From Dehalococcoidales bacterium (lineage in GTDB: Bacteria > Chloroflexota > Dehalococcoidia > Dehalococcoidales > UBA2162), in assembly GCA_020354275.1 (NCBI GenBank), contig CP070645.1, positions 258,497-295,129 of the forward strand: a stretch of DNA of 36,633 nucleotides, in the 5' to 3' direction. Shown piece after piece: positions 8,730 to 30,886 of the stretch. The notes below the pieces were generated by a model. It was not told the origin of the DNA. It did not search any database and worked only from the letters and a program-made list of their open reading frames with translations. Each line of letters opens with the position of its first letter. Positions within the stretch are counted from its first letter, which is position 1. Position numbers and translations under genes: made by a program.

Positions 8730-8756
8730 GCCAGCTTTATTAAAGCAGAAATAATT

Positions 8757-9200
8757 ATGCAAATTTTAATTAAGAAAATAACAGCCATTATCAACGGGCA
8801 AAAAGGCTTTACACTGTTAGAGACACTAACGGCACTGGCCTTGCTGGCTATTCTGGGGGTAGTTTTCTATTCCTCCATAGCTACTTCCAGTATTACTATG
8901 GCTAGTGCCGAAGAAAAGGTCCAGATTGATAATCTGGCCAGAGCCCAATTCGAATATACCAAGAAATGCGAATATGTCGAATACATTTATGGTTCGCCGG
9001 ATACGCCACCTGATTACACAACCCTTGATGAACTCGATCCCACTGACCCTTATGCAATCACCCTGCCCGACGGCTATTCTATTGATGTTGCTGCCGTGGC
9101 ACTCCACGTACCCGATGCCGGGGTACAGCAGATAACGGTCAACATATCACGGGACGGAGAAAGCCTGCTGGTAATAGAAGGCTATAAGTTAAACAGATGA
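8757..9200 (+). CDS. prepilin-type minor pilin
   Basis: The class III signal is GQKG/FTLLETLTALALLAILGVVF, with Glu at +5. Confidence 0.75.
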   Translation: MQILIKKITAIINGQKGFTLLETLTALALLAILGVVFYSSIATSSITMASAEEKVQIDNLARAQFEYTKKCEYVEYIYGSPDTPPDYTTLDELDPTDPYAITLPDGYSIDVAAVALHVPDAGVQQITVNISRDGESLLVIEGYKLNR

Positions 9201-9709
9201 TTAAGTCATTAATAAGAAACCAAAAAGGGATGACCTTTGTTGAAGTGATAGTGGTCACCGCTATTATTGCGGCAATCACGGGGGCTTTTAGTTCGTCAAT
9301 CTTTGGCATCTTTCAGCACACTGAGAGCAGCAATGCTCACATGACCGCTGCCAGCAGCATAGAGAACGCTGCCCACCGTATTAGCACTGACGGACAGATG
9401 GCCCAGAATACTGACCTCGTTCCAGGTTCTGCTGCTGTAAGCAGTATAACCCTAAACTGGACCGACCCGGTCAGTTCTGACTCCTACGAAATCTACTATT
9501 TCCTGGCCGATGGTAACCTTCAACGCCGGGAATCAGTTAATGACATAGAACAGAGTACACAAACAATAGCTAAATATATAACCAGTATCGGATTTTACCA
9601 GGAAGCAGGTGATGAACAGTTATTTACCGTCGCTATCACCTCTTCAGGGTCAAGTCCCCGGGTGAGTGAAACCAAAGAGTACCATATTCTACTTAGAGCA
9701 ACTGATTGA
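9197..9709 (+). CDS. prepilin-type minor pilin
   Basis: Its start overlaps the previous stop (ATGA at 9197). The signal is NQKG/MTFVEVIVVTAIIAAITGAF, with Glu at +5. Confidence 0.75.
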   Translation: MIKSLIRNQKGMTFVEVIVVTAIIAAITGAFSSSIFGIFQHTESSNAHMTAASSIENAAHRISTDGQMAQNTDLVPGSAAVSSITLNWTDPVSSDSYEIYYFLADGNLQRRESVNDIEQSTQTIAKYITSIGFYQEAGDEQLFTVAITSSGSSPRVSETKEYHILLRATD

Positions 9710-9835
9710 CCATAAGGGAGGGTGTTTAAAAAGCTGAGTCTATTGCCCAATTTCTCCGGCACGGAAATTGAAACAATCATACCAGATCCATTCCCCCACT
9801 GGGGAAAATATAGAACAGGTTTTAAACGGTAAAAA

Positions 9836-10405
9836 ATGAAATATAAAAGGATATTTACAAGCATTCCATTTATAATCGGTATTTTCATTGTCATTTACGC
9901 TGGCTTTGGGCTGGTATATTTCCAGAAGCATAATGAATGGCGTGATATAAATGCTCAAATTATTCCTACTCGAACTGCTCTGAGTAAACCTTCTGCCGAC
10001 CTGGGGCAACTGGAAAGCCAGCTCAGCCAGATTGAATTCCAGTTTGAACAGGCCTGGGCAACTCTTCCTGATGCGAACCAGGGAATTGATCTATATGACG
10101 CCCTAATAGAGGTGGCCCGTCAGAGCAATGTAGACGTTATTAGTGTAGTGGCTTCTTCACCGGCAGACGGTCACTATGGCGGAATAACATTTACCACATT
10201 ACCATACAATATCAATGTACAAGGCAGTGAAACTGGTATCCTTAACTTCGTCTCCAACCTGGCCGACGGCCCGGGGTTATTAGAAAGCTCTGAGGTCCAA
10301 AACCTAATTATTATTAATGGTGAATCAGACAATGTCACGGGTATTAGCTCCAGCCAGGCGAGTTTTCAACTGGTTATATACGCCCAACCCAGCCAATCAC
10401 TGTAA
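9836..10405 (+). CDS. PilO-like pilus assembly protein (N-terminal TM, coiled coil, C-terminal alpha/beta domain)
   Basis: The TM helix is IPFIIGIFIVIYAGFGLVYF. A coiled segment (LGQLESQLSQIEFQFEQAW) follows, then LPDANQGIDLYDALIEVARQSNVDVISV, which is typical of PilO. The call rests on architecture and position only. Confidence 0.5.
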   Translation: MKYKRIFTSIPFIIGIFIVIYAGFGLVYFQKHNEWRDINAQIIPTRTALSKPSADLGQLESQLSQIEFQFEQAWATLPDANQGIDLYDALIEVARQSNVDVISVVASSPADGHYGGITFTTLPYNINVQGSETGILNFVSNLADGPGLLESSEVQNLIIINGESDNVTGISSSQASFQLVIYAQPSQSL

Positions 10406-10442
10406 ATTATATATATCTCAAGCGATATAAGGGAGTATAAAA

Positions 10443-11879
10443 TTGTTCTCTAAGAAAATTGTAACCTTGAATATCGAGAGTACTGACATCAGGCTTTTAA
10501 CTGTAGTTGGTAAACGGGTACAAGAGTGGAGCACCGCTTCCCTTGACTCTGATCTGGTAAAAGAGGGATTAATAATAGACCCCCCAGCAGTGAGTGCCGC
10601 CATCAGCCGGCTTATGGCTGACCAAGGAATCAAGGAGAAGGACATTATTACCAGCTTGAGCGGTTTTCAATCAGTCCAGCGTACTCTTGATCTGCCCAAG
10701 TTATCTCACCAATTAATTGGCGATGCCCTTCTAAGGGAAGCTAAAAGGACAATGCCTGTTTCTCTAGATCAGTTATATCTGTCCTGGCAAATCCTCCATG
10801 ACGGAGATCAAACTCAGCCTGTTTTTCTGTTGGGCATTCCCAGGAACTTAATGGACGCCCAGGTTGTATGCCTGCAGCAGGCCGGGATTTCTCCACGTAC
10901 TATGGAACTCAAGCCGCTGGCTTTAGCCAGAATGGTAAACCGGCCCGAAGCACTAATTGTTGATGTTGAAGAGGAGAATGCTGATATTATTGTAATATCA
11001 GGAGGGATCCCCATCATTATGCGCACCCTCAGCATGCGCATTGACCAGTCGCTGAGCAGGCGGCTACAATATTTGGTTGAAGAGTTTGAGCGAACCCTGC
11101 AATTCTATGCTTCCAACCACCCGGACGAACCTTTGGGCCGTTCGACTCCGCTCTTTCTAACCGGTGGACTGGCTAAGGACGTCGAAGTAGTCCAGGTAAT
11201 AACCGCCGGTATAGAATACAAAATAGAACCCTTGGAGTCTCCGTTTGAATCTCCCCCTGATTTCCCTTCAGAACAGTATGCTGTAAATATCGGCATGGCG
11301 CTGAAATATACATCCTTAATGAGAGACACAAGCATACCCGATGTCAACATATTGCCCGATAACTATCGCCCCCACCGGATGCCAGCCAAACAGATGCTCC
11401 TGGTTCCGGGGATTGTAGCCGGAATCGCGGTCATCCTACCCCTGTACCAGCTGGCAAATTCGGCTAATGTCGAGGTTTATCAGGCCCAGGCGGAATATAA
11501 TAAGGTCACTCAACAGCTCCAGATCAGACAACTGGAAAATAAAAGGGTTCAGGAGATTGAAGCTGCTATCGCCAAGATAGAAGAGAAAAAGCAGCAGCTG
11601 GAGACCAAGATAGAGGAACTTGGCGCCGGGCGTCTGGATATCTATGATACCCTCTCCACGGTCGCTGTTGAATGCCTGCCTTCTGGGGCGACCCTGTTCA
11701 GTACTTCATATTCAGGCGGGCAATTGAAACTGCAGGGCAACGCTACCAGTTATACACAGGCGCTGGAATACAGCCGCATTCTTGAGCAAACGGAAAAATT
11801 TGCCGTAGTGTGGATAAATTCGTTAAACGCTGCCGATGACGGCACGGTGAACTTCAGTATAACTCTAACACAGTCTTGA
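10443..11879 (+). CDS. PilM-PilN fusion protein (actin-like ATPase fold fused to a TM and coiled-coil PilN-like region)
   Basis: TTG start at 10443 follows AAGGGAG. The N-terminal ~300 aa is PilM-like (IVTLNIESTDIRLL..., LTGGLAKD). Next come NILPDNYRP (PilN-type motif), the TM helix LLVPGIVAGIAVILPLY, a coiled coil and a C-terminal domain. Confidence 0.7.
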   Translation: MFSKKIVTLNIESTDIRLLTVVGKRVQEWSTASLDSDLVKEGLIIDPPAVSAAISRLMADQGIKEKDIITSLSGFQSVQRTLDLPKLSHQLIGDALLREAKRTMPVSLDQLYLSWQILHDGDQTQPVFLLGIPRNLMDAQVVCLQQAGISPRTMELKPLALARMVNRPEALIVDVEEENADIIVISGGIPIIMRTLSMRIDQSLSRRLQYLVEEFERTLQFYASNHPDEPLGRSTPLFLTGGLAKDVEVVQVITAGIEYKIEPLESPFESPPDFPSEQYAVNIGMALKYTSLMRDTSIPDVNILPDNYRPHRMPAKQMLLVPGIVAGIAVILPLYQLANSANVEVYQAQAEYNKVTQQLQIRQLENKRVQEIEAAIAKIEEKKQQLETKIEELGAGRLDIYDTLSTVAVECLPSGATLFSTSYSGGQLKLQGNATSYTQALEYSRILEQTEKFAVVWINSLNAADDGTVNFSITLTQS

Positions 11880-11933
11880 TCCGCCACGGTCATACCCATA
11901 AAAGATATATAAATTGTGAAAGGTAATTAAACA

Positions 11934-13028
11934 ATGGACATTATCGATATTCTACAACTGGCAGTGAAGAGAAATGCCTCTGATATTCAAATCCTGGCTT
12001 TTTGCGCCCCGGTAATGAGGGTTGACGGTAAGTTGGTAACACTGGACACCCTCCCCCTGACAGCCGAAGATGTCCGGCAGATATTCGATGAAATAACCAA
12101 TGATGAGCAGAAAGAGAGCTTCAAGCGTGAACAGGAGCTTGACTTTGGTTATAATTTCTCGGGAGGTATCCGCTTTAGGGTGAACGCCCACCGACAGAAG
12201 GGGACTATTGGTCTCTCCTTCCGTCTGGTCCACAATACTATTCCCACTATCGAGGATTTAGGGCTTCCACTAATATGTCAGGAACTGGTAACCAAACCCC
12301 ATGGTTTAATACTGGTTACCGGACCCACCGGGTGCGGCAAATCCACTACCATGGCGGCGATGATTGAATACCTTAATCACTACCTGCGCCGACGTGTGGT
12401 TACCATTGAAGACCCTATAGAGTACGAATATGCCAGTGACCAGTGTGTCATATCACAACGCGAAATTAACTTCGATACACACTCATTTACGGCAGCACTG
12501 AAACACGTGCTCCGCCAGGATCCCGATGTCATCCTGGTCGGTGAAATGCGGGACCTAGAGACGGCAGCGGCGGTACTGATGGTTGCGGAGACCGGCCACC
12601 TGGTGATATCTACCGGCCATGCTCCCAGCGCCCATTATTCCATAGAAAGAATCGTTGACCTCTTTCCCGCCCACCAGCAACAGTTGGCCCTGGGGCGGCT
12701 GGCCGCTGTCCTTCAGGGAGTGCTTTGCCAGAGGTTAATACCCAAAGCTGACGGCGCCGGACGGGTACCCGCGGTAGAGGTAATGCTGGCAACTCCGGCA
12801 GTGAGAAACCTCATCCGGGAGAACAAGACCTACCAGTTGCCTAATGTCATCCGTACCAGCTCGCAGAGCGGCATGCGCACCATGGACGAAGCATTATCGA
12901 CACTCTATCTCACCAAGCAGATTAGTAAAAAGGAACTTTTCGATAATTGCGCCGATGAAGAGGAAGTGGTCAGGATAATCGGTGAGCCAAGACGAGGTGT
13001 TGCCCTGCATAGAGCGGTATCATACTAG
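11934..13028 (+). CDS. pilT: type IV pilus retraction ATPase PilT
   Basis: It is 364 aa. Walker A is GPTGCGKST and Walker B is DPDVILVGEMRD. It has no T2SE_N extension. LIRENKTYQL is typical of PilT. Confidence 0.85.
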   Translation: MDIIDILQLAVKRNASDIQILAFCAPVMRVDGKLVTLDTLPLTAEDVRQIFDEITNDEQKESFKREQELDFGYNFSGGIRFRVNAHRQKGTIGLSFRLVHNTIPTIEDLGLPLICQELVTKPHGLILVTGPTGCGKSTTMAAMIEYLNHYLRRRVVTIEDPIEYEYASDQCVISQREINFDTHSFTAALKHVLRQDPDVILVGEMRDLETAAAVLMVAETGHLVISTGHAPSAHYSIERIVDLFPAHQQQLALGRLAAVLQGVLCQRLIPKADGAGRVPAVEVMLATPAVRNLIRENKTYQLPNVIRTSSQSGMRTMDEALSTLYLTKQISKKELFDNCADEEEVVRIIGEPRRGVALHRAVSY

Positions 13029-17932: not shown

Positions 17933-18166
17933 ATGGCAACGATGAAATGCCCGGGTCAGGACATGCGAAATTTACGTGTGGAGTTATTCAAATGCCCCGG
18001 CTGTGGCGGTGAGGTTGAGGTCTTCTCCGACGAAATGAGGGTGAAATGCCAGAAATGCGGCCAGCGTGTCTATCGCGATAGCGTCCCGTCATGCATCGAG
18101 TGGTGCGCCTCCGCCCGTCAGTGCCTGGGAGAAGAAAGATGGCGTCAATTACACGGCGGAGACTAG
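17933..18166 (+). CDS. small Cys-rich zinc-ribbon protein
   Basis: GGAGGT precedes ATG 17933. Cys motifs are CPGQD...CPGCGG...CQKCGQ, plus CIEWC...C. It is 77 aa. Confidence 0.6.
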   Translation: MATMKCPGQDMRNLRVELFKCPGCGGEVEVFSDEMRVKCQKCGQRVYRDSVPSCIEWCASARQCLGEERWRQLHGGD

Positions 18167-18190: not shown

Positions 18191-18913
18191 ATGACGACAA
18201 AAGTAAATAGAAATATAGTAAAAATCGACGAGGATAAATGTAACGGTTGCGGAGCCTGCATTATATCATGTGCCGAGGGGGCATTACAGGTAATTAACGG
18301 CAAGGCAAAGCTGATCAGTGATAAGTACTGTGACGGACTCGGTGCCTGTCTCGGTGAATGCCCTCACGGGGCCATCAGTATCGAGGAAAGGGCTAGTGAA
18401 GAATTTGACGTAGAAGCCGTCAGGCACCACCTTGAAGCAGCAGAACCAAGTAGCAGGGAACTACCCTGTAGTTGCCCTTCAACCACCGTAGAAAAAGAGA
18501 CGGCAAACCAGCCATCAATACCCGGCCAATGGCCGGTCCAACTCGCCCTGGTACCGCCAGAGGCACCCTTTCTTGAACAAGCGGACCTGCTGCTGGTAGC
18601 CGACTGCGTCCCCTTTGCTTATGGCAAATTCCACCACGACCTACTCAAAGACCATGCATTGCTGGTAGCCTGCCCCAAACTGGACGATTTCCAGACGCAC
18701 CTGCAAAAACTCACCGAGATCCTGCGCCATTCACCGGTAAAAAGCCTTACCGTGGCGCACATGGATGTACCCTGCTGCGCCGGGCTAACCCACATGGCCA
18801 GGCAAGCAATACACCTCAGCGGACGCGAAATCCCTCTCAGTGAAATTACTATCGGCATCAGGGGAGACATAAAAAGACCTGACGCCGGTTCAGTAAGTAA
18901 ATTGCCTGCATAA
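18191..18913 (+). CDS. 4Fe-4S dicluster domain protein with Cys-containing C-terminal domain
   Basis: Cluster motifs are CNGCGACIISCAEGA and CDGLGACLGECPHGA. The C-terminal domain contains ADCVPFAY, ACPKLDD and MDVPCCAGL. Confidence 0.7.
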   Translation: MTTKVNRNIVKIDEDKCNGCGACIISCAEGALQVINGKAKLISDKYCDGLGACLGECPHGAISIEERASEEFDVEAVRHHLEAAEPSSRELPCSCPSTTVEKETANQPSIPGQWPVQLALVPPEAPFLEQADLLLVADCVPFAYGKFHHDLLKDHALLVACPKLDDFQTHLQKLTEILRHSPVKSLTVAHMDVPCCAGLTHMARQAIHLSGREIPLSEITIGIRGDIKRPDAGSVSKLPA

Positions 18914-19054
18914 TCCTCCCAATATTGACATTACGCTACAAGAGAACTAAACTCAAGACAATACACGAACCACCCGCAGTATTTTTTAAGGTAAGTGTAT
19001 AAAGCACATAAATTACCGGGTTCCTGTCTAACGTAACCGTCAGGGAGGTAAGTA

Positions 19055-20230
19055 ATGAAACTGCTAATTGTTGGCTTTGGACAATGCGGGGGCCGGATTG
19101 CCGATGGTTTTGCCCGTCTAAACAAAAGATCACGGGGCCGCCGCGGACTGGAAATAATAACCGGTATCTATGCGGTAAACACGGACGCTGCTGATTTAAG
19201 CGGGTTATACAACATCAGGGCAGATTACCAGCACCGAATCCTCATCGGTGGTGACAAGACCAGGGGACACGGTGTCGCTAAAATGAGCGAGGCCGCGGCC
19301 GATATAGCCAGAGAAGACGGTGATAAAATCATCGATGCTATACGTACAACCAAGAGATTTTTTGAAACTGACGCATTTTTACTGATTGCCGGCGCTGCCG
19401 GCGGCACCGGTTCCGGTACGCTACCGGTAATGATACAGCGTATTAAAGAGCGTTACGTGGATAAACCCGTCTATGCCCTGGTTGTCCTGCCCTTTGAACA
19501 CGAGGAGGAAACAGAAGAAAGGACTATCTATAACACCGCGGTATGCCTGAAATCTGTTTATTCCGTAGCCGATGCCGTGTTTCTGACCGATAACCAGAGG
19601 TATGTCAAGAAAGACATCTCTCTGAGGAATAACATCGCCAAAATCAATGACATGATTATTGACCCATTCTACAACCTGCTCTGCGCCGGGGAAGAAAAAA
19701 AGGCAAAATATATCGGGACCAAGATGCTTGACGCCGGAGACATAATGCACACCCTTTCGGGGTGGACGGCATTCGGTTATGGCAAATCGCTCCTGCCACT
19801 GATTAACCTGCCCTTTGCCGTAACCCGGAACTTCCGTAAGAAGAGTAGTGAAACCCACAAGGGAATCCAGGCCATGGACCAGGCCATCAGCGAACTGTCG
19901 GTCCATTGCGACCCCAAGGACTCGGCCAGCGCATTGTATCTTTTAACTGCCCCTTCCAAAGAAATGAATGTAGAGCTGGTAAAGGAGCTTGGTGACTCCC
20001 TCCGTAGCATAGCCCCTGAAGCTATTATCAGGAATGGTGACTACCCCAGAGAGAGCGGTGAAATCAACGTGGTCGTTATACTGTCACGCCTTAACGAACT
20101 GGAAAAGGTGAAGCAATATTACATCAAGGCGTCCAGTGTGGTTGCCGAGATTGAAAGAAAACAGGAATCGATGGCCGATAAACCCAATGCCACCGAGGAA
20201 GTATCCAAGGACATCCCGACACTACTATAG
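19055..20230 (+). CDS. tubulin/FtsZ-superfamily GTPase, CetZ-like
   Basis: GGAGG precedes ATG 19055. The T1 loop is IVGFGQCGGRIA. The T4 signature GGTGSG (nt 19400..19417) is tubulin/CetZ style, not the FtsZ GGGTGTG. Other blocks that I recall from archaeal CetZ are AVNTDAADL, LIGGDKTRGHGV, PVYALVVLP, FLTDNQ, NGDYP and VVVILS. Confidence 0.75.
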   Translation: MKLLIVGFGQCGGRIADGFARLNKRSRGRRGLEIITGIYAVNTDAADLSGLYNIRADYQHRILIGGDKTRGHGVAKMSEAAADIAREDGDKIIDAIRTTKRFFETDAFLLIAGAAGGTGSGTLPVMIQRIKERYVDKPVYALVVLPFEHEEETEERTIYNTAVCLKSVYSVADAVFLTDNQRYVKKDISLRNNIAKINDMIIDPFYNLLCAGEEKKAKYIGTKMLDAGDIMHTLSGWTAFGYGKSLLPLINLPFAVTRNFRKKSSETHKGIQAMDQAISELSVHCDPKDSASALYLLTAPSKEMNVELVKELGDSLRSIAPEAIIRNGDYPRESGEINVVVILSRLNELEKVKQYYIKASSVVAEIERKQESMADKPNATEEVSKDIPTLL

Positions 20231-20310: not shown

Positions 20311-20643
20311 GTGATAAACAATATCATTAATTACCTTCAAAGAAGAAGAAAGACGAAGCTATACCGGCAGTGGGTACAGCAGAGTAGTTTATCTGCCGAT
20401 GATGTTCCCGATGAACTTGTAAGACGGGAAAGAGAGGGAGCCGATCAACCCTCAGATGAAGAATCTGATTTTTTATTTGAAGAGATGCCCCGGCAAAGAA
20501 TACCGGTCAACACAAGATGGCAGGTTTCATCCAGCGGTATATTTATACCTACCCGATATATCCTGCTGACCGGTTCTGCAATCCTGTTACTCCTGGTTAT
20601 TGTATCAGTACTCTCAACCGTCCTCATTATGCGGTCCTGCTAA
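20311..20643 (+). CDS. hypothetical protein with acidic middle region and C-terminal TM anchor
   Basis: It has a GTG start and no clear RBS. The C-terminal hydrophobic segment is ILLTGSAILLLLVIVSVLSTVLIM. I recognise no homology. Confidence 0.35.
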   Translation: MINNIINYLQRRRKTKLYRQWVQQSSLSADDVPDELVRREREGADQPSDEESDFLFEEMPRQRIPVNTRWQVSSSGIFIPTRYILLTGSAILLLLVIVSVLSTVLIMRSC

Positions 20644-21254
20644 CACACCAACCGGAACCCCCTGGCTATGGCGACCGGGTTTGCTATCTACTACGCATAC
20701 CGTCGCTGGAAACACATACCGCTGACCCACAGTACACCGGCACCAACCATAATATACCGCAACTAACAACCTTAGGCTTTTATGCCCACCTTCCCGTATC
20801 AGAAACCTGGTCTCTGTACTGCAGTGCATCTATTATTTTACATTCTGGCACCTTCTCTGATGCTACTAGAGGAGCTCACTAATCACAAAATACCAGGATG
20901 GTTTCAAATGCAGCACACTGCACGTTCTAGACGATTACATAATTATAAGCCCTTTTAAGTAAGGTGAAACCAAAACTGCGTCAGTTCGGCTTAGGTATTA
21001 ATACTTAGAAAACACGACTAATAATAGGTATTACTACGGAAGCCAGTTTAACGAAGAATGTAATAGTCTAATATGTAGGGAGGATTTATGCTGCTGTAAA
21101 AAAGCCAGGGTGGAGCGAGTTGCTGAAGTCAACCAAGCGTAGGAAAGAACCGACATAACGGTTTGCCAGCAGATAATTAAGCCAGACCAACAATAAAAAA
21201 TTAAGAGCCAACCAATAAAACAGTATTAAGAATATAGTTTCATGGAGGTACATT

Positions 21255-21440
21255 ATGGAATGGTGGGTGATTTTGCTTCTGGTACTGGCAGTGCCCGTAA
21301 TCCTTATCCCGGTGGGCTTGATCTGGTATATCAATGTCAGCGGTATCTATACGGTTATCCGGGAGACACAGAGGAGGCGTGCTGAGCACAGTAAAAGGGT
21401 CAGAGAAACGCAACTGGCTAGCAAACCAGTGCTGAAGTAA
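21255..21440 (+). CDS. small membrane protein (61 aa)
   Basis: GGAGG at 21244..21248 precedes ATG 21255. An N-terminal TM helix (WWVILLLVLAVPVILIPVGLIWYI) is followed by a basic tail. A terminator follows directly. Confidence 0.55.
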   Translation: MEWWVILLLVLAVPVILIPVGLIWYINVSGIYTVIRETQRRRAEHSKRVRETQLASKPVLK

Positions 21441-21465
21441 GGAGAAGTGAAAGGCTTCTCCTTTT
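21441..21465 (+). terminator. intrinsic terminator
   Basis: GGAGAAG (21441..21447) pairs with CTTCTCC (21455..21461) across a 7-nt loop. TTTT follows. Confidence 0.7.
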
Positions 21466-21565
21466 CACTGCGGACTTGCTGTGCCCAGATTTTGCTTTAG
21501 TACGCGCAAGCTCCAGAAACTATTTTTAGGTAGCAAATTCAGTATATTACAGGGAAGGAGGTTTG

Positions 21566-22135
21566 ATGGAAAGAAGAACACGAACAGATAGTTTTATAGA
21601 GGAAGTCAGTGCTATTCCGGGCGGAGAAGGTATCCGCCTTTGTATTCAATGCGGTACCTGCACGGCGTCCTGCCCCAATGCTGATAGCATGGACCACACT
21701 CCGTCGCAACTCATCGCCATGACACGGGCAGGAATGAAAGAAGAGGTTCTTTCCAGCAATGCCATGTGGCACTGTCTCTCCTGTTATCTCTGTACTGTAC
21801 GTTGCCCGAGGGGAATCAAGCAAACAGACCTTATGCATGCCTTTGAGTGTCTATCAGTGCGGGAAGGTTTGAGTCACGGCCGGACACTCACGCCGGCTAT
21901 GTACCGCAGTTTCAATGATTTCGTTTACAGCCTGGGAAGTCTCCCCGAAGCAGGATTTATAACCTGGTATTACCTGTTGACTAACCCGCTGCGTGCTATC
22001 AGGTTGTTGCCAATGGCATTGAGCTTGCGGAAGCGGGGACGCCTAACTATTAGAGCCAGAAGGCTAACCCCGGAGGGAACCAGACAACTCCGGGCTATCC
22101 TTGACAAAGCCGAAGAGCTAGGAGGTGTGAGTTGA
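21566..22135 (+). CDS. hdrC: heterodisulfide reductase subunit C-like protein
   Basis: GGAAGGAGG lies upstream. ATG 21566 is preferred, and an in-frame TTG at 21563 is also possible. Two 4Fe-4S motifs are CIQCGTCTASCP and CLSCYLCTVRCP. Confidence 0.85.
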   Translation: MERRTRTDSFIEEVSAIPGGEGIRLCIQCGTCTASCPNADSMDHTPSQLIAMTRAGMKEEVLSSNAMWHCLSCYLCTVRCPRGIKQTDLMHAFECLSVREGLSHGRTLTPAMYRSFNDFVYSLGSLPEAGFITWYYLLTNPLRAIRLLPMALSLRKRGRLTIRARRLTPEGTRQLRAILDKAEELGGVS

Positions 22136-23004
22136 GATATTATGCCTATTTCCCGGGTTGCTCCTCGTCTGAGGGGGGAGCCAAAGCATATGGTGTGTCA
22201 GCTCAGGCAGTTAGCAAAGCTCTGGGCATCGAGCTTCTTGAGCTGGATGACTGGAACTGCTGCGGCTCGACGCCCTATAGCTCATTTGAGGAACTGGCTT
22301 CCTTCTGCCTTTCGGCGCGGAACCTGGCTCTGGCAGAAAAGACGGGCTTAGATTTAGTGACGCCATGCAGCTCCTGCTATGTCATCTTGAACCGTGCTAA
22401 CTCTTACTTGAAGCAGTACCCTGACCTTAAGGCTAAAGTTGATGAATCTCTGGCAGCCGGGGGGCTGGAATACAAGGGGACCGTTCGGGTCAGGCACCTC
22501 CTCGATATCTTTGTCAACGACATCGGTTACGACACCATCAGCGCAACCGTAAAGAAGAGCCTTGAAGGATTGAAGGTGGCTCCCTACTATGGCTGTCAGC
22601 TGGTTCGACCCAGCTTCGGCTTTGATCACCCTGAAATGCCTGAGTCGATAGATAAACTAATAGTAAGTCTTGGGGGAGAGACTATCAACTTCCCCAAGAA
22701 AGCCCGTTGTTGCGGAGGGTCCCTGATTATCTCTGAAGAGGACCTTTCACTGAGTTTAATCGGCAAGGTTCTCAAATCTGCGCTGGATAATGGGGCAGAA
22801 TGCATAATTACCCCCTGTCCACTGTGCCAGACTAACCTGGATGCTTACCAGAAATCAGCTGACAAAAGGTTTATGACCAGCTTCAACCTTCCCGTCCTGT
22901 TTTTTACCCAGTTGATGGGAGTGGCTTTCGGGCTTGTTGAGAGAGACCTGGGCTTGAAAAGCTGCATTGTCCCGGCCGAAACGGTCTTAGGCAAGTACCT
23001 TTAA
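22132..23004 (+). CDS. hdrB: heterodisulfide reductase subunit B-like protein (two CCG domains)
   Basis: The TTG start overlaps the hdrC stop (TTGA). CCG-domain cysteines are FPGCS...NCCGS...PCSSC and YYGC...RCCGGS...PCPLC. Confidence 0.85.
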   Translation: MRYYAYFPGCSSSEGGAKAYGVSAQAVSKALGIELLELDDWNCCGSTPYSSFEELASFCLSARNLALAEKTGLDLVTPCSSCYVILNRANSYLKQYPDLKAKVDESLAAGGLEYKGTVRVRHLLDIFVNDIGYDTISATVKKSLEGLKVAPYYGCQLVRPSFGFDHPEMPESIDKLIVSLGGETINFPKKARCCGGSLIISEEDLSLSLIGKVLKSALDNGAECIITPCPLCQTNLDAYQKSADKRFMTSFNLPVLFFTQLMGVAFGLVERDLGLKSCIVPAETVLGKYL

Positions 23005-23014
23005 GGAGTAGAAA

Positions 23015-24976
23015 ATGGAGCATAAAATCGGCGTTTATGTCTGCCACTGCGGGGCTAATATTGCTGGTGTCGTCGATGTCGAGCAGGTAACTGAGTTTGC
23101 CCGGGGTTTGCCGTCAGTAGCTATAGCCCGCGATTACAAATTTGTGTGCTCGGACCCGGGCCAGGACATGATAAAGAATGATATCAAGGAACTGGGGCTT
23201 GATCGTGTGGTAGTAGCGTCATGTTCACCACGCTTACATGAACCCACCTTCAGACGCATGCTGGCCAGCGCCGGGCTCAACCCCTATTTCTTTGAGATGG
23301 CCAATATCCGCGAGCAGTGTTCCTGGGTAACCGAAGACAATGAGGCGGCTACGGACAAAGCCAAGGCAATGGTGAGCGCCTCAGTACGGCGTGTTTTCTA
23401 CCACGAGCCGCTGGAAACGAAGGAGGTTTCGGTCAACCCCTGTACTTTAGTCGTGGGAGCGGGTATCGCCGGGATACAAGCCGCACTGGAAATCGCCGAC
23501 TCGGGTAACAAGGTTTACCTGGTAGAGCGTGAACCTTCAATCGGCGGTAACATGGCCCGGCTGGACAAGACATTCCCTACATTAGACTGTTCGGCCTGAA
23601 TACTCACGCCGAAAATGGCCTCGGTGAGGTCACACGAAAACATCGAAATGATGACCTATAGCGAAGTAACGGATGTTTCCGGCTACGTGGGTAATTTTAA
23701 GGTCAAAATACGCAGGAAGCCGCGCTATGTGGATGAGAGTAAGTGCACCGGTTGCGGTACCTGCCAGGAAAAATGCCCGATAAAAGCGGGCAACGAATTT
23801 GATGTCGGTCTGGGTAAGAGGAAGGTCATCTACACTCCTTTTCCGCAGGCAGTACCCAATATGCCGGTAATTGACCGGGAGCACTGCACCTATTTCCTGA
23901 GGGGCAAATGCCGCGCCTGCGAAATGTTCTGTGAAGCCAAGGCGATCGATTTTGAGCAAACGGAAAGGATAGATGAGATAGACGTTGGTTGCATCATAGT
24001 CACTACCGGCTTTGATTCATTCGACCCCTCAGTGATGACTCAGTTTGGCTACGGTCAATATGACAATGTAATCTCCGGCATCCAGTTTGAGAGGATGAGC
24101 AATGCCTCGGGCCCAACAGGCGGTAAGCTTCTGCTTAAAGACGGGTCAACGCCACAGAGCGTGGCTATCCTGCACTGCATCGGCAGCCGCGATGTCAACT
24201 ATCACGAGTACTGCTCACGGGTCTGCTGCATGTACTCACTCAAGTTCTCCCACTTGGTCAGGGAGAAGATCCCGGATGCCGAGATTTATCAGCTCTATAT
24301 TGATATGCGTTGCTTCGGCAAAGGCTACGAGGAATTCTACGAGCGGCTTCAGGAAGAAGGGATCAACTTCGTGCGGGGGCGTGCCGGTGAGATTACCAAC
24401 ATTGCCGAGGAACCCGGGGAGGAAGGCAAGCTGGTGGTGCTCGTTGAAGATACGCTGGTGCGACGGAAGCGGCGCATTCCGGTTGACATGGTCGTGCTGA
24501 GTACGGCTCTGGAGCCACAGGCAGACGCCGGTGAGGTAGCCAGGCAATTCTCTATCAGCCGGAGCAAGGACGGCTTTTTTATGGAAAAACACCCCAAGCT
24601 CGACCCGGTAGCAACCACTACCGACGGCGTCTTCGTTGCCGGCTGCTGTCAGGGCCCGAAGGATATCCCCGATACCGTGGCTCAGGCGGCGGCGGCGGCG
24701 GCGAGAGTGCTGGCGATGATAAACAAGGGTAATGTGGAGATTGAGTCGGCAATAGCTGCTGTTGATAAGGAGTCCTGTTCCGGTTGCAAGACCTGTCTCA
24801 CACTCTGTTCTTACAATGCAATTTCCTTTACTGAGGAAATGAAGGTGGCGGTGATTAACGAGGCGCTGTGTAAAGGCTGCGGAACCTGTGCTGCGGCTTG
24901 CCCCAGCGGGGCGATTATCAGCCGGCATTTTACCACGCAGCAGATTATGACGCAGTTGGAAGGAGTGTTAGTATGA
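23015..24976 (+). CDS. hdrA: heterodisulfide reductase subunit A-like flavoprotein, with in-frame TGA (codon 195) read as selenocysteine
   Basis: ORFs 23015..23599 and 23615..24976 share a frame and are separated only by TGA 23597..23599. The sequence reads [24 protein letters not shown], where HdrA homologues have DCS-x-C-I-L-x-PKM. Other motifs are the N-terminal CHCGANIAG, the FAD motif [14 protein letters not shown] and several ferredoxin-type Cys motifs ([35 protein letters not shown]). Confidence 0.85.
23603..23628 (+). promoter_or_regulatory. candidate SECIS-like hairpin downstream of the hdrA UGA
   Basis: CTCAC..CCGA pairs with TCGG..TGAG (about 8 bp with a 2-nt bulge). The apical loop is AAAUGGCC. 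The hairpin starts 4 nt after the UGA. Confidence 0.4.
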
Positions 24977-25395
24977 GCTTTGAACCCAGGATAATCGGAT
25001 TTCTCTGTAACTGGTGCTCCTATGCCGGGGCTGACCTGGCTGGCACATCGCGGAAAAAATATGTCCCCAACGTGCGCGTGATAAGGGTAATGTGCAGTGG
25101 CCGGGTAGACCCCAGCTTCATCGTCAAGGCTTTCCAGCTGGGTGCGGATGGTGTTCTCGTCTGCGGCTGACATCCCGGCGAATGTCATTACCTGGAAGGT
25201 AATATGAAAGCAGCCCGACGGATACCTTTGATGAAAAAAATGCTGGCCCAGTTCGGGATTGAAGAGGAGCGGGTACGCCTGGACTGGGTATCGGCGTCAG
25301 AAGGAGACCGCTTTGCCCAACTGGTCAACGAAATGACGGAGGAAATCAGACGGCTGGGTCCTTTCAGCGGAAACGGAGGTAAGGCCGATGACTAA
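24973..25395 (+). CDS. mvhD: MvhD-like hydrogenase delta subunit, with in-frame TGA (codon 66) read as selenocysteine
   Basis: The ATG overlaps the hdrA stop (ATGA). The sequence reads [24 protein letters not shown]...[37 protein letters not shown]. Homologues read GC-HPG-x-CHY at that point. The same frame continues to TAA 25393..25395. Confidence 0.85.
25187..25203 (+). promoter_or_regulatory. candidate SECIS-like hairpin downstream of the mvhD UGA
   Basis: AUUACC pairs with GGUAAU (6 bp) around the loop UGGAA, 17 nt after the UGA. An alternative hairpin, UGACAU/AUGUCA at 25168..25187, includes the UGA itself. Confidence 0.4.
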
Positions 25396-26362
25396 ACCGA
25401 AGATAGCCCTGTACTGGGCGGCCGCATGCGGTGGCTGTGATGTCGCCGTGCTCGATACCAACGAGAAGATACTGGATATTGCCAATCTTGCCGACATTGT
25501 TTTCTGGCCGGTTGCCCTTGACTTCAAGTACCACCACGTTGAAGAAATGGCCGATACCTCCATTGACCTGTGCCTTTTTAATGGCGCGGTTAGAAATTCG
25601 GAGCAGGAAGAGATTGCCAGGCTATTACGCGCCAAATCAAAGGTAATGGTAGCCTTTGGCGCCTGTGCCTGTTTCGGCGGTATACCGGCGCTGGGCAACT
25701 TCACCACACGCGACGAGATATTCGAGCGCGTCTATATTGAGTCACCGTCAAGCGCCAATGAAAACCGTACTTTCCCCCAGACCCTGACCAAAGTTGAGGA
25801 AGGCGAATTAGATCTGCCGGAGATGTTCGATACCGTGATGACACTGGCACAGGTGGTAGATGTGGAATATTTTATCCCCGGCTGTCCGCCGCCGGTGGAT
25901 ATCATCCTCAAAGTAGTAGACCTGTTTGCTAGCGGACAACTACCTCCGGTGGGGGCGATAATTGCCTCGGATAAGACGCTGTGCGATGAGTGCGAACGGA
26001 CAAAGGAAGAGAAGAAGATAGCCAGGATTTATCGCCCCCACCAGATTATCCCCGACCCGAACAGGTGCCTGCTGGAGCAGGGAATAATCTGCTGCGGCCC
26101 GGCTACTAGAGGGGGCTGCGGCGTCCGGTGCGTTAAGGCCAACATGCCCTGCCGCGGCTGTTTCGGGCCGCCACCGGGGGTTATTGACCAGGGAGCCAAG
26201 CTGGTCAGTGCTATTGCTTCCATCTATCAGTCTGACGGACAGGAAGACATTAACAGAATGTTAGAAGATATAGTGGACCCAGCAGGAACATTTTACCGGT
26301 TTGGTATGGCTGATTCCATGCTCAAGAGGAAGAGTCTACCGCAGGGTGAAAGGAGGGCGTAG
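25388..26362 (+). CDS. mvhG: [NiFe] hydrogenase small subunit, MvhG-like (group 3c type)
   Basis: It overlaps the mvhD end by 8 nt. Motifs are KIALYWAAACGGCDVAVLD, GACACFGGIP and GCPP. The C-terminal Cys cluster is CCGPATRGGCGVRCVKANMPCRGC. Confidence 0.85.
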   Translation: MTKPKIALYWAAACGGCDVAVLDTNEKILDIANLADIVFWPVALDFKYHHVEEMADTSIDLCLFNGAVRNSEQEEIARLLRAKSKVMVAFGACACFGGIPALGNFTTRDEIFERVYIESPSSANENRTFPQTLTKVEEGELDLPEMFDTVMTLAQVVDVEYFIPGCPPPVDIILKVVDLFASGQLPPVGAIIASDKTLCDECERTKEEKKIARIYRPHQIIPDPNRCLLEQGIICCGPATRGGCGVRCVKANMPCRGCFGPPPGVIDQGAKLVSAIASIYQSDGQEDINRMLEDIVDPAGTFYRFGMADSMLKRKSLPQGERRA

Positions 26363-26367
26363 CCGCA

Positions 26368-27843
26368 ATGAAAAAGATTTCCGTCAATCCCATAACCAGG
26401 CTTGAAGGACACGGCAAGATAGAGATCTTCTTAGATGATAGCGGCGAGGTTGTCAATAGCTATCTTCAGATTCCCGAGCTTCGCGGTTTCGAGAAGTTCT
26501 GTGAGGGCAGGCCGGTTGAAGAGTTGCCCCGCATCGTCCCGCGAATCTGCGGCGTCTGACCGGGGGCACACCATCTGGCCTCGTGCAAGGCCACAGACGC
26601 CGTCTACCATACTGACCCTCCGCCTGCTGCTAAGAAGGTGCGGGAGTTGTTCTACTGTGCCCATATGGTCCACTCCCATATCGCCCACTTCTATGCCCTG
26701 GCCGCACCCGATTTCGTTCTGGGGCCCACCAGCGACCCCGCCGAAAGGAACATACTGGGGGTAGTGGCCAAGGTCGGGCTTGAAATCGGTGGTGAGGTGA
26801 TAAAACACCGTGCTTATGCCCAGGATATCCAGAACACTATCGGCGGTAAGGCCACTCATCCCGTCTTCGGCCTGCCCGGGGGAATCAGCAAGCCAGTCAC
26901 CGAAGAGGAGCGTAAAGGCTTTGAGGAAAAAGCCAGGTCAGAGGTTGAGTTCGCCAAATTCAGTCTGAAACTGTTCAATGACGTGGTGCTGGAGAACAAG
27001 GACTACCTGGCTCTGATAACCGGTGACATATATACCATGAAGAGCTATTATATGGGGCTTGTCGATAGCCAGAACAGGATTAACTTTTATGATGGCGATG
27101 TCCGTGTGGTTGACGAAGATGGGAAGGAGATTGTCAGGTTTAGTCCTGCTGAGTATCTGGACTATATCGCCGAGCATACTGAACCCTGGTCTTACCTCAA
27201 GTTCCCCTTCCTGAAAAAAACCGGCTGGAAGGGATTTATTGAGGGCAGGGAAAGCGGCATTTACCGGGTGAGCCCGCTGGCCCGTCTTAATGTTGCCGAT
27301 GGCATGGCCACTCCCCTGGCTCAAGCCGAATACGAGAAGATGTATCAAACACTGGGTGGTAAGCCTGTGCATGCCACCCTGGCTTTCCACTGGGCGAGGT
27401 TAATCGAGTTGTTGTACGCAGCCGAGCGTCTACTGGATCTCAGCCAGGACAAAGAAATAACCAGCCCGGAGGTCAGGACTATACCAACGGCCACACCAGA
27501 CGAGGGGGTCGGTATCGTTGAAGCACCACGGGGCACGCTTATCCACCACTACCAGACGGATAACAACGGCATTGTCCAGAAGGCCAACCTGATTGTCGCT
27601 ACCTGCCACAACTACCCGGCAATGAATATGTCGATCAAGAAAGTGGCTCAGGCAGCGATTAAAAAAGGGGAGGAAGTATCGGAGGGGTTGCTGAATATGG
27701 TGGAGATGGCATTCCGCGCCTACGACCCGTGCTTCGGCTGTGCTACCCATACCCTGCCCGGGCAGATGCCGATGGAAGTAACAATTTATGACAGTCAGGG
27801 AGAAGTCGTCAGGAGATTAAGCCAGAACCTGCCCGATAGATAG
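26368..27843 (+). CDS. mvhA: [NiFe] hydrogenase large subunit, MvhA-like, with in-frame TGA (codon 64) read as selenocysteine in the N-terminal metal-binding motif
   Basis: ORFs 26368..26559 and 26638..27843 share a frame, and the frame between them is open. The sequence reads RLEGHGKIEI...PRICGV-TGA-PGAHHLASCKA, against the family motif RxCGxCxxxH. The C-terminal motif is all-Cys, DPCFGCATH. Confidence 0.8.
26576..26593 (+). promoter_or_regulatory. candidate SECIS-like hairpin downstream of the mvhA UGA
   Basis: UGGCCU pairs perfectly with AGGCCA (6 bp) around the loop CGUGCA, which contains GU. The hairpin starts 17 nt after the UGA. Confidence 0.45.
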
Positions 27844-27875
27844 TCTGACCGGTTTTGTTATAGGGGGAACGCGGC

Positions 27876-28334
27876 ATGAAGACACTGGTGCTGGGTCTGG
27901 GCAATCCGATTCTCAGTGATGACGGTGTGGGTATTCGCGTTGCCCAGGAACTAAAAGATAGTCTTGACCCGGCCGAGGTCACGGTGACGGAAGCCGGTGT
28001 GGCTGGTCTGGATTTTCTCGACCTGCTGACTCCTTATGACAAAGCTATTATTATTGATGCCATTCAAACCAGAGAAGGAAAGCCCGGTCAGGTTTACCGG
28101 CTCAAGCCTGAAGACTTCATGGCTACACAGCATGCCTGCTCACCCCATGACGTAAACTTCGCCACTGCCCTTGAGCTTGGGAGGAGATTGGGCATACTCT
28201 TACCCCAAGAGATAGTTGTCTTTGCTGTTGAAGTCGAAAACGTAACGACTTTTAACGAGAGATGTACACCCAAAGTAGCGCAGACGGTTCCTGTAGTGGT
28301 TGACATGGTAATGCGGGAACTGAACGGGGGATAA
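27876..28334 (+). CDS. hydrogenase maturation endopeptidase (HycI/HyaD/FrhD family)
   Basis: The N-terminus is MKTLVLGLGNPILSDDGVGIRVAQEL. An internal DAI...HD pattern is present. It is 152 aa and lies directly after the large subunit. Confidence 0.85.
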   Translation: MKTLVLGLGNPILSDDGVGIRVAQELKDSLDPAEVTVTEAGVAGLDFLDLLTPYDKAIIIDAIQTREGKPGQVYRLKPEDFMATQHACSPHDVNFATALELGRRLGILLPQEIVVFAVEVENVTTFNERCTPKVAQTVPVVVDMVMRELNGG

Positions 28335-28535
28335 AGGATAACACCCCTTTTTAACCCTGCTTTCACATATATTCCCTTGTTATGTTAACCCGTTAATCAT
28401 GGATGCAGGCAAATCCTGTTCGGCTATTCTACCTGCAGTAAGGAAAAGCTTGTTTGCCCCTGGCAACTCGCGCCTGTAATTGACAACCACCTACGCCCTC
28501 TTGTCCATAATCCACATAAGACATTCGCTCCCTAT

Positions 28536-28991
28536 GTGACCAGGGGAATGACCGTACTGGATGTAGGCTGCGGCGCCGGTTTCGCTTCCTTAGGGCTGGC
28601 CAGACTTGTTGGTGAGGAAGGCCTGGTGATTGCTGCAGATTTGCAGCCCAGGATGCTTAACTTCGTCAAAGAAAGAGCAATCAGGGAGGGACTATCAAAT
28701 CGAATTCATATTCACCTTTGCAGCCATGACCGCATTGGCCTGCAAGAAGAACTGGACTTCACCGTAGCCTTTTTTATGCTACACGAAGTACCGGATATAC
28801 AAGTCTTCCTGAAAGAAATTAACTCGCTACTTAAACCGGGTGGCCGGTTTTTCATCACCGAACCAAAGATTCATGTAGGCTTAATAGCATTCAATGAGAT
28901 GATGCGAAAAGCTGAAGACGTTGGCTTTGAAATAGCAGAAAAGCCCCGTGTACGGTTTGGCAGAACGGTGTTATTATCGAAGAGTGAATAA
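28536..28991 (+). CDS. class I SAM-dependent methyltransferase (start uncertain, possibly N-terminally truncated)
   Basis: Motif I is VLDVGCGAGFASLGLA. Post-I and II blocks are ADLQPRML and VAFFMLHEVPD, followed by LKPGGRFFI. The in-frame sequence upstream back to 28389 still looks like the family N-terminus but has no ATG, GTG or TTG. Confidence 0.7.
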   Translation: MTRGMTVLDVGCGAGFASLGLARLVGEEGLVIAADLQPRMLNFVKERAIREGLSNRIHIHLCSHDRIGLQEELDFTVAFFMLHEVPDIQVFLKEINSLLKPGGRFFITEPKIHVGLIAFNEMMRKAEDVGFEIAEKPRVRFGRTVLLSKSE

Positions 28992-29264
28992 TATTGTATT
29001 AACCAACCACCTATATTTATACCCAAAGAGCTTGCAACAATTTCCGATACAGGGGTAATAGCTTCTTTGTTTACAGATTGGCGTACTGCAGCATAGGATA
29101 GAGCTTGACAGCTCAGACGCGGCATGGCAAACTAATCAGTGGCGTTAAGGACGCCTCCTGGTCTGCGGGAAGGACGTAGTCCACCCCGGCAAAGTGAAAA
29201 CCGAAATAACCTTCTTTCTGCCTGCGATTGCAGACCCCAGGCAATTATGTGAAAGGAGGTTGTC

Positions 29265-30113
29265 ATGTCCAAGTCTCTTCCCGATCGGCCGAATCTTGAT
29301 CATGTCAAGAATGAGGCCAAAGCACTCCTCAAAGCGTACAAGGACGGCGACCCTGGTGTTTGCGAAACGCTGCGACATCTCGCCCGTCTGCGGGATACTT
29401 CGGACAAGGAAATCCTAGCGGCGAACGTTTCCCTGCAAGAGGTGCAGCATGCTCTGGCATGCCAGTATGGCTTCAAAAGCTGGAAGGCGTTGGTCAACAT
29501 CGTGGCCGAAGGTACCGAGTTCGCTGAACATGTTCAGGAAGCCTTCGAGGTCTTCACATCCAAAGGTCCCGAGCACAACTCCACGGGATCCTCCTGGGAC
29601 CAACGCCGCAAGGATGAGTGGAGAAAGCTATTGCAATCAGGCGATGATGGCTTCCGGGCTATGATGAAGCTGGCACGGTCCGATAATGGTCGGGCACGTA
29701 ACGCGGCAGCGGTCTTCTTCGGATTATCCGATGACAAACGGGCTACCGAAGAGCTTCGGACGCTACTGCTGAGAGATCCTGCAGCGACGGTTCGAAGTCG
29801 AGCAGTGCGTTTCTACGCTGCGCGGATACATCCTGCCAAGTCGGGGGATAGACTTTTGAGAATCCACGAGGCCGCCGACACTATCCCAGAAGGTGTGGAA
29901 GCCATCCTGCCGCTTGTGCGTGACGACAACGTGAAAGTGAGGATGGACGTCATTGCGATCCTCTCAGCCTATGCGCGGCTAGGCGACGCTCGCATCGTAG
30001 AAGCACTGCACCAAGCACTGGACGATCCGCTTCACAAGGTACGACATGCCGCCGCCCGCGTACTGGGCGTGCCGTGCCCACGGTGTAGCGAGTCTTCCCA
30101 AGCGGGTAAATAG
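29265..30113 (+). CDS. HEAT-repeat protein
   Basis: AAAGGAGG precedes ATG 29265. HEAT-like units are DPAATVRSRAVRFYA, DDNVKVRMDVIAILS and DDPLHKVRHAAARVLG. The N-terminus is LPDRPNLDHVKNEAKALLKAYKDGDP. Confidence 0.65.
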   Translation: MSKSLPDRPNLDHVKNEAKALLKAYKDGDPGVCETLRHLARLRDTSDKEILAANVSLQEVQHALACQYGFKSWKALVNIVAEGTEFAEHVQEAFEVFTSKGPEHNSTGSSWDQRRKDEWRKLLQSGDDGFRAMMKLARSDNGRARNAAAVFFGLSDDKRATEELRTLLLRDPAATVRSRAVRFYAARIHPAKSGDRLLRIHEAADTIPEGVEAILPLVRDDNVKVRMDVIAILSAYARLGDARIVEALHQALDDPLHKVRHAAARVLGVPCPRCSESSQAGK

Positions 30114-30164
30114 AAAGAACCAGAAGAATGTCGGCAAAATGTCAGCAGAAGAATAAAAATCGAT

Positions 30165-30208
30165 TGTGAGTCGTGCAGGTCTCGAACCTGGAACCAGCTG
30201 ATTTTGAG
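30165..30208 (-). pseudogene. tRNA-like 3' fragment (anticodon-loop to acceptor end, degenerate)
   Basis: The reverse complement reads CTCAAAATCAGCTGGTTCCAGGTTCGAGACCTGCACGACTCACA. A T-loop GGTTCGAGACC is present with a 4-bp T-stem. There is no matching 5' acceptor strand upstream. It matches 30779..30822 at 34 of 44 positions. Confidence 0.4.
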
Positions 30209-30220
30209 GTTATGTACAAT

Positions 30221-30848: not shown

Positions 30849-30886
30849 AAAATAACCTGAATATTTAGGTGCAGGAAAAATCCCCC

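Follow-up and report, generated by a model that had tools for sequence, protein, structure and literature searches.

Archaeal CetZ1, a member of the tubulin/FtsZ superfamily, forms GTP-dependent polymers, and its T7-loop residue E218, the hydrophobic tip of its M-loop, and its C-terminal LESLF motif are each needed for rod formation. CetZ has been described in a review as archaea-specific, with the canonical clade bounded by the CetZ of Thermococcales (PMC9856176). CetZ-like proteins have been listed in Chloroflexota-Dehalococcoidia by Santana-Molina et al. (2023) (PMC9871819), where the model of the CetZ C-terminal domain (CetZ_C) matches them and where they are termed "CetZ-like" and lie outside the canonical CetZ node. 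Here we describe such a gene from an uncultured Dehalococcoidales bacterium (GenBank assembly GCA_020354275.1, contig CP070645.1, positions 258,497 to 295,129). The whole stretch of 36,633 nucleotides (nt) that was analyzed is called the window, and all window features given below lie on its plus strand. The gene, at 19055–20230, starts with ATG and encodes a CetZ-like GTPase of 391 residues, and it is the only tubulin-like gene in the window. It is directly followed by a small open reading frame (ORF) whose product is probably a partner of the GTPase.

Family assignment, fold and sequence features

The window protein matches the Pfam Tubulin domain (PF00091) with an E-value of 1e-29 and CetZ_C (PF21011) with an E-value of 5e-14, the latter scoring 52.6 bits (cut-off, 21.6) over profile positions 3–175 of 180. 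The Pfam scan of the protein gave neither an FtsZ_C nor a Tubulin_C match, and the protein scored only 49.8 bits with the NCBIfam ftsZ equivalog model TIGR00065, whose cut-off is 295. When compared with the sequences of solved structures, the protein is most similar to Haloferax volcanii CetZ1 (Protein Data Bank code 4b46; E-value of 2e-39 over residues 1–372), followed by CetZ2 (4b45; 1e-25) and a Methanosaeta CetZ (3zid; 9e-13), and the FtsZ and tubulin sequences score 5e-9 or worse. Among 63 representatives of the family from bacteria and archaea, 62 are likewise matched by the CetZ_C profile.

An AlphaFold2 (AF2) model was obtained with an alignment of these 63 sequences and has a mean predicted local distance difference test score (pLDDT) of 91.6 and a predicted template modeling (TM) score of 0.89. 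A model built from 31 relatives that were at least 68% identical was discarded, with a pLDDT of 48. The first three fold matches of the retained model are again 4b46, 4b45, and 3zid, with target-normalized TM-scores of 0.90, 0.90, and 0.80. The FtsZs come after CetZ (target-normalized TM-score of about 0.84), and the margin between the two is modest (E-values of 7e-33 and 6e-25), which is to be expected for members of one superfamily. The Pfam, NCBIfam, structure-sequence, and fold matches thus agree that the protein is CetZ-like, as a first-pass annotation of this DNA had proposed from its motifs, and that it is neither FtsZ nor TubZ. Its domains and fold assign it to the CetZ-like branch of the superfamily, as a member from a bacterium.

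All of the tubulin-style motifs quoted in that annotation are found in the translation. The T1 loop GFGQCGG (residues 7–13; 19073–19093) is of the tubulin/CetZ type and aligns with GFGQAGG of CetZ1; residues G7, G9, Q10, C11, and G12 are invariant in an alignment of close relatives. The tubulin signature GGTGSG in the T4 loop (residues 116–121; 19400–19417), aligned to the CetZ1 motif, is also invariant among the close relatives, and its G116 and G119 are invariant among the bacterial and archaeal representatives as well. Further motifs are AVNTDAADL (residues 40–48) and GDYP (residues 328–331). In the T7 loop, MLDAGD (residues 224–229; 19724–19741), the predicted catalytic acid is kept as D229. 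This residue aligns with the catalytic E218 of CetZ1, and both D226 and D229 are invariant in the family. D212 of Escherichia coli FtsZ lies in the same motif. Judged from these residues, the GTP-binding and T7 catalytic apparatus is intact.

The region that aligns with the long M-loop of CetZ1 (about residues 246–260; 19790–19834) contains the hydrophobic cluster LPLINLPF. Residues P253, F254, and F260 do not vary in the alignment of close relatives, and the region is a lower-confidence loop in the AF2 model. A long C-terminal helix (residues 350–375; 20102–20179) follows CetZ_C in the AF2 secondary structure. The chain ends in the conserved peptide KDIPTLL (residues 385–391; 20207–20227), a candidate partner-binding motif. 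In the Dehalococcoidia family the consensus of this tail is (K)D-I/V/L-P-S/T-L-L, where P388 is invariant and K385, D386, L390, and L391 are each at least 90% conserved. Similar tails occur in remote representatives of the bacterial clade. In front of the gene, a Shine-Dalgarno sequence GGGAGG (19043–19048) can be read 6 nt ahead of the ATG, and a consensus scan found a promoter-like TTGACA-17-TAAACT (18925–18953) with 10 of 12 matches, which is a pattern match only.

The protein therefore shares with archaeal CetZ (CetZ1, CetZ2, and 3zid) the Tubulin GTPase plus CetZ_C architecture, the tubulin-like T1 motif GxGQxGG, the acidic catalytic residue in T7, a hydrophobic M-loop, a long C-terminal helix, and a short hydrophobic terminal motif. 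Several paralogues per genome and a host without peptidoglycan but with an S-layer-type envelope are common to both. The two differ in the terminal motif itself, since archaeal CetZ ends in L-E-S-L-F or D-I-D-x-L-F, or in D-I-D-x-L-F/L among the archaeal representatives, and the Dehalococcoidia family in D-I-P-S/T-L-L. They also differ in gene partners, which in Dehalococcoidia are gap/dnaX, coiled-coil proteins, or a small protein with a KLYKQW motif. The host here is a Dehalococcoidia bacterium and not an archaeon, which is a difference of distribution and not of molecular character.

In a library clustered at 50% identity, the protein matches 747 representatives at E-values of 1e-3 or below, 68 of them at 1e-30 or below. 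Pairwise scores split the representatives cleanly into a bacterial set closer to the window protein and an archaeal set closer to CetZ1, with labeled members from Nitrososphaerales, Halogeometricum, and Bathyarchaeia; the closest archaeal sequences share about 30–34% identity with the window protein. In a neighbor-joining tree (100 bootstraps, a single FtsZ outgroup, and no Thermococcales reference identified among the representatives), a bacterial clade with a bootstrap value of 45 stands beside the archaeal representatives with a value of 6, which is weak support for both.

Three sequences in the library or scans carry labels at odds with their position. A "Chloroflexota" protein (P0196) groups with the archaeal CetZ representatives, near a Bathyarchaeia sequence, and could reflect a separate transfer or a binning error. 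A "Calditrichales" contig (L063; 4.6 kb, coverage 0.7), whose encoded relative resembles those of the Dehalococcoidia loci in its 64% identity to the window protein, is probably misbinned, and so, probably, is a partial "Doudnabacteria" protein (P0439) that falls within the 90%-identity cluster of Dehalococcoides mccartyi.

Genomic setting, paralogues and the companion gene

The contig is bacterial. The window holds a type IV pilus cluster encoding PilB, PilC, pilin, PilM, and PilT (5771–13028) as well as a histidine kinase, and the named relatives of the flanking PilB all belong to Dehalococcoidia or Chloroflexota. At the CetZ-like gene, the GC content does not change abruptly. A contig from a separate metagenome, L112, independently assembled the same order of a zinc-ribbon gene, a gene for an iron-sulfur (Fe-S) protein, the CetZ-like gene, and the small ORF. 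Its nucleotide identity to the window is 87–95%, and the two CetZ-like proteins are 98% identical. The ratio of nonsynonymous to synonymous substitution rates (dN/dS) between the two copies of the CetZ-like gene is 0.05, and the gene is thus under strong purifying selection. The relatives of PilB, the independent assembly of L112, and the Dehalococcoidia loci described below together exclude contamination and chimerism, and the bacterial gene setting noted in the first-pass annotation is real.

A scan of one genome per species of the Genome Taxonomy Database (GTDB) revealed 79 loci in 68 assemblies that encode relatives 54–78% identical to the window protein. Nearly all are metagenome-assembled genomes (MAGs) of Dehalococcoidia, Dehalococcoidales, or Dehalococcoidaceae, among them a MAG of Dehalogenimonas as well as two MAG records submitted as one chromosome each. 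The closest genomic relatives also include the cultured D. mccartyi, whose orthologue of 392 residues is 60% identical over its full length and ends in DIPSLL. This orthologue (D2BH82_DEHMV) is named "Tubulin-like protein CetZ" in UniRef and "tubulin/FtsZ family protein" at NCBI. With this name, and with the Dehalococcoidia proteins listed in PMC9871819, the suggestion of an undescribed bacterial branch does not hold: the branch has been described in passing and named in databases.

Of the 79 loci, 40 have dnaX and 38 have gap as a neighbor of the CetZ-like gene. The order ligA-pth-eno-gap-[cetZ]-dnaX-ybaB-recR-recO-lysS is found in many Dehalococcoidia including D. mccartyi, where the interval from cetZ to dnaX (L083/L084:9384-10480) contains a DUF2089 gene, an ORF of 89–94 residues, and a SHOCT-like DUF2089-C gene. 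Because the CetZ-like gene sits in this housekeeping locus, its presence points to long residence of the family in Dehalococcoidia and not to a recent transfer. The inter-domain transfer raised earlier is accordingly not a recent one, with 60% identity to the D. mccartyi copy against about 30% to archaeal CetZ and with no break in composition, although an ancient event at the level of the family is possible.

The gap/dnaX locus carries one to three tandem copies, and further copies are scattered elsewhere. One Dehalococcoidales MAG, CAZNSC01, has six CetZ-like copies on three contigs (loci L003, L025, L037, and L078), including two tandem pairs, a count that may include strain mixing within the MAG. 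H. volcanii likewise has six CetZ paralogues. A tree of 88 copies resolves groups with contexts of their own: the gap/dnaX copy, a copy next to coiled-coil genes, and the group of the window gene. The copy of the coiled-coil group is always followed by two convergent genes, cc8 (about 175 residues) and cc7 (490–710 residues, with repeats rich in A, E, and K) (L017:8400-10724, L018:3536-4060, and about 20 other loci). A Pfam search of cc7 and cc8 gave no match; their products are candidate filament partners. The D. mccartyi protein, of the same family and class of bacteria and of nearly equal length, is the housekeeping-locus orthologue (gap-cetZ-DUF2089-x-SHOCT-dnaX). In contrast, the window copy belongs to the scattered paralogues and has another partner gene; it is neither a recent archaeal import nor contamination.

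That partner gene is the small ORF at 20311–20643, directly downstream of the CetZ-like gene, which encodes 110 residues. Its basic N terminus contains the motif KLYRQWVQQ (20356–20382), and an acidic linker leads to a C-terminal transmembrane helix of 25 hydrophobic residues (20557–20631). A hidden Markov model (HMM) derived from the small ORF detected a homologue immediately behind the CetZ-like gene in six of six loci of the window group and nowhere else among the loci searched; none lies beside the D. mccartyi copy. When metagenomes were scanned with the small protein as bait, 29 loci were obtained, with a CetZ-like gene immediately upstream in 26; the remaining 3 end at a contig edge. The gap between the two genes is about 35 nt in most of these loci, and the small ORF is probably co-transcribed with the CetZ-like gene. 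It has no Pfam and no NCBIfam match. Relative to L112 its reading frame is kept and its dN/dS is 0.15, which shows that it is a real coding gene.

The N terminus of the small protein is conserved as ...RRR-x-x-KLY(K/R)QW(V/A)Q(H/Q)... and is highly basic. The C terminus exists in two versions. Most homologues have 63 residues, the last of which make up a basic amphipathic helix (RPYKEKFVDIIRKLLKV) whose hydrophobic moment is 0.5–0.6 and whose net charge is +3 or +4. This moment is near that of the membrane-targeting sequences of FtsA and MinD and is suggestive only. The form of about 110 residues (in the window, L112, and L113) instead has the acidic linker and the hydrophobic helix of 25 residues. 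Such an exchange of the anchor with retention of the N-terminal motif is as expected of a membrane adaptor and supports that role. Because the C terminus is always membrane-directed and yet switches between helix types, membrane attachment itself appears to be the selected property. Taken together, the sequence data suggest that the small protein is probably the partner of the CetZ-like protein in the window paralogue group. The earlier speculation that a small, acidic, transmembrane-anchored protein could serve as a membrane tether gains support, in that the small ORF is a conserved companion of this paralogue group under purifying selection; the tether role itself is putative.

A proposed function beside FtsZ

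By analogy with CetZ1, the most likely function of the protein is that of a GTP-dependent, membrane-associated cytoskeletal filament in cells without peptidoglycan. Dehalococcoidales and SAR202 have lost dcw and peptidoglycan genes but kept mraZ-mraW-ftsA-ftsZ, and their wall is S-layer-like (PMC10608941). Reports of canonical FtsZ cover every one of the Dehalococcoidales investigated (PMC10608941) as well as D. mccartyi (PMC8163811), so that FtsZ and the CetZ-like protein coexist in the lineage. Given the loss of peptidoglycan, the retention of FtsZ and FtsA, and the S-layer-like wall, a function in shaping the cell or organizing its envelope, next to FtsZ, seems the likeliest. We therefore hold, with moderate confidence, that a CetZ-like GTPase forming membrane-associated filaments with an envelope or shape role beside FtsZ best explains the observations as a whole.

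The following mechanism can be proposed. The CetZ-like protein would bind GTP through its T1–T4 loops and polymerize head-to-tail as CetZ1 does, with D229 of the T7 loop completing the active site of the adjacent subunit. The result would be dynamic filaments beneath the cytoplasmic membrane, in which the hydrophobic M-loop and the KDIPTLL tail may mediate lateral and partner contacts. The basic KLYRQWVQQ motif of the small protein could bind the filament, and its C terminus, transmembrane here and amphipathic in most relatives, would fix the filament to the membrane; recruitment by the anchored small protein might proceed through the C-terminal peptide or the M-loop. Such filaments would organize the envelope or the shape of the cell and would accompany, not replace, division by FtsZ. 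Tubulin-family filaments are held at the membrane by an amphipathic helix in FtsA and SepF and by a transmembrane helix in ZipA, and both types of anchor occur within the family of the small ORF. Those tethers have no sequence similarity to the small protein, which is only 63–110 residues long, and filament binding by it is proposed by analogy.

Several points weigh against this reading. Polymerization, membrane association, and an effect on shape are all extrapolated from CetZ1, a protein only about 30% identical. Since the weakly supported bacterial clade stands beside and not inside archaeal CetZ, the function may have diverged. An amphipathic-helix hydrophobic moment like that of the small protein is reached by 9% of shuffled sequences, so that this call is not statistically strong. 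Binding of the small protein to the CetZ-like protein is likewise presumed, and it could instead regulate polymerization. Finally, one observation in favor of the proposed role has limits: in the proteome of D. mccartyi BTF08, FtsZ (btf_0595) and an expressed "FtsZ/Tubulin GTPase" (btf_0551) were quantified, both of which were lower in co-cultures where the cells went from discs to barrels (PMC8163811). From its annotation and neighborhood, btf_0551 is probably the D. mccartyi orthologue of the window protein, but this identity is inferred, and the drop in abundance tracks a culture condition and is not a genetic test.

The joint drop of the two proteins in cells of altered shape would also suit an auxiliary division protein, one that works with FtsZ in the divisome and docks to FtsA or SepF through an FtsZ-like C-terminal peptide, much like the second FtsZ needed by wall-less archaea. 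Bacterial FtsZ shares the superfamily fold and the logic of GTP-dependent polymers with the window protein, and its short peptide has the form D-I-P-x-hydrophobic-L. The KDIP(T/S)LL tail resembles this peptide, which in E. coli is DIPAFL, and Dehalococcoidales keep FtsA and FtsZ despite the loss of cell wall genes. However, archaeal CetZ also carries a hydrophobic motif of its own at the C terminus, and such a tail is thus not specific to FtsZ; moreover, all family-level tests favor CetZ over FtsZ. Besides FtsZ_C, bacterial FtsZ has GGGGNN in T1 where the window protein has GQCGG, and the window protein has an additional C-terminal helix. The genes adjoin gap/dnaX or lie scattered, outside the mraZ-mraW-ftsA-ftsZ cluster, and no ftsA, mraZ, or mraW turned up among the scanned ORFs of the window. 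Two to six paralogues with different partners also suit a single divisome role poorly. We regard an auxiliary division role as unlikely.

A second alternative concerns only the small protein, which might be a filament regulator at the membrane, for example a capping or sequestering peptide, and not a tether. Its strict linkage to the CetZ-like gene and its highly basic N terminus would fit such a regulator. On the other hand, a C terminus that is ever membrane-directed, whether amphipathic or transmembrane, suggests that attachment is under selection. We regard a regulator as improbable.

A recent acquisition from archaea, a chimeric contig, or archaeal contamination might be suspected, as CetZ is otherwise an archaeal family, the neighboring hdr/mvh genes are common in methanogens, and the 10-kb hdr-mvh block beside the gene varies among close relatives. 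For the window gene this is refuted, and we give it next to no weight: the nearest archaeal sequences are about 30–34% identical as opposed to 54–98% for the Dehalococcoidia copies, and the housekeeping context in D. mccartyi and in single-chromosome MAG records, the PilB relatives, the second assembly, and the lack of an abrupt GC change at the gene, all described above, stand against it. A TubZ/PhuZ-type DNA-segregation tubulin of a plasmid or prophage, to which a weak match to Pfam Tubulin_2 (16.6 bits, E-value of 0.005, under the cut-off of 27) and the contact of that profile with 23 of the 63 representatives might point, is extremely improbable, because CetZ_C is matched and does not match TubZ (PMC9871819), the family sits in chromosomal housekeeping loci, the window ORFs that were scanned include no phage or plasmid genes, and the top fold matches are CetZ and then FtsZ, with no TubZ or PhuZ among the first 50.

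The reading of the protein as a membrane-associated filament of CetZ type can be carried further. After the loss of peptidoglycan, Dehalococcoidia may have come to use an archaeal-style cytoskeleton in which CetZ-like paralogues each have an adaptor of their own (the KLYKQW protein with its exchangeable membrane anchor in one group and cc7/cc8 in another) that captures the D-I-P-S/T-L-L tail and links the filaments to the membrane, and which sets the disc shape of the cells. We offer this extension tentatively and consider it rather unlikely.

Surrounding genes and wider significance

Upstream of the CetZ-like gene lie the zinc-ribbon ORF (17933–18166; 77 residues) and the gene for a 2x[4Fe-4S] protein (18191–18913; 240 residues). 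Their presence had been correctly noted before, but they are not conserved in relatives. Both were considered as parts of the system and rejected because they are common only to the window and the near-identical L112, and two other loci of the window paralogue group have different genes upstream. The zinc-ribbon, Fe-S, Hdr, and 61-residue ORFs have no counterpart among the 79 genome loci, and the only match to the two CoA-transferases of the window is a distant homologue in one of these loci (L032).

Downstream of the small ORF, the window contains an Hdr/Mvh cluster in a block of 10.2 kb (20644–30883) with hdrCBA, mvhDGA, and genes for a hydrogenase maturation protease, a methyltransferase, and a HEAT-repeat protein. 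This block is missing from L112, in which about 1.8 kb of different sequence separates the small ORF from a match to window positions 30884–31868 that starts at a tRNA-Ala gene. The block is therefore a variable region adjoining tRNA-Ala. Within it, two HdrA-like ORFs (23015–23599 and 23615–24976) lie in one frame with a TGA (23597–23599) alone between them, in the context TFPTLDCSA[TGA]ILTPK. This TGA is a candidate selenocysteine codon, and since the two ORFs are in frame and split only by it, HdrA is probably a single protein of about 650 residues. The large subunit of an MvhA/VhuA-like hydrogenase (26368–27843, with an apparent start at 26368) has an in-frame TGA (26557–26559) in its N-terminal metal-binding motif, RICGV[TGA]PGAHH, where it could encode selenocysteine, at an unusual position, or stem from an error in sequencing. 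At the other end of the window, two DivIVA-domain coiled-coil proteins (3216–4049, 277 residues; 4146–5750, 534 residues) are encoded directly upstream of pilB-pilC-pilin-pilM-pilT. A polarity or division scaffold paired with type IV pilus genes is unusual in a wall-less lineage.

The gain from the GTPase itself is incremental, because a CetZ in a bacterium is already found in the literature and in UniProt names. What is new is a paralogue group within the Dehalococcoidia CetZ-like branch that had not been described before and has a partner gene of its own, together with the gap-cetZ-dnaX housekeeping locus, the expansion to as many as six copies in one MAG, the conserved tail, and the linked small membrane-anchored ORF. 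Reviews present CetZ as archaea-specific, and yet a sizeable bacterial branch belongs to the core genome of a class of environmental and bioremediation relevance. The hosts in both domains lack peptidoglycan and have S-layer-type envelopes, which makes the idea of CetZ filaments as a way to shape wall-less cells testable. As the link between CetZ filaments and the membrane, the small companion gene offers a concrete candidate, and it can be tested directly in vitro because it is short, strictly linked, and available with two versions of the anchor. The companion gene and the connection with wall loss are the parts worth following. If an archaeal-style cytoskeleton with adaptors exists in Dehalococcoidia, bacteria would have their first CetZ system, which would include the first CetZ membrane tether identified in any organism, and wall-less bacteria and archaea would have converged in their cell biology.

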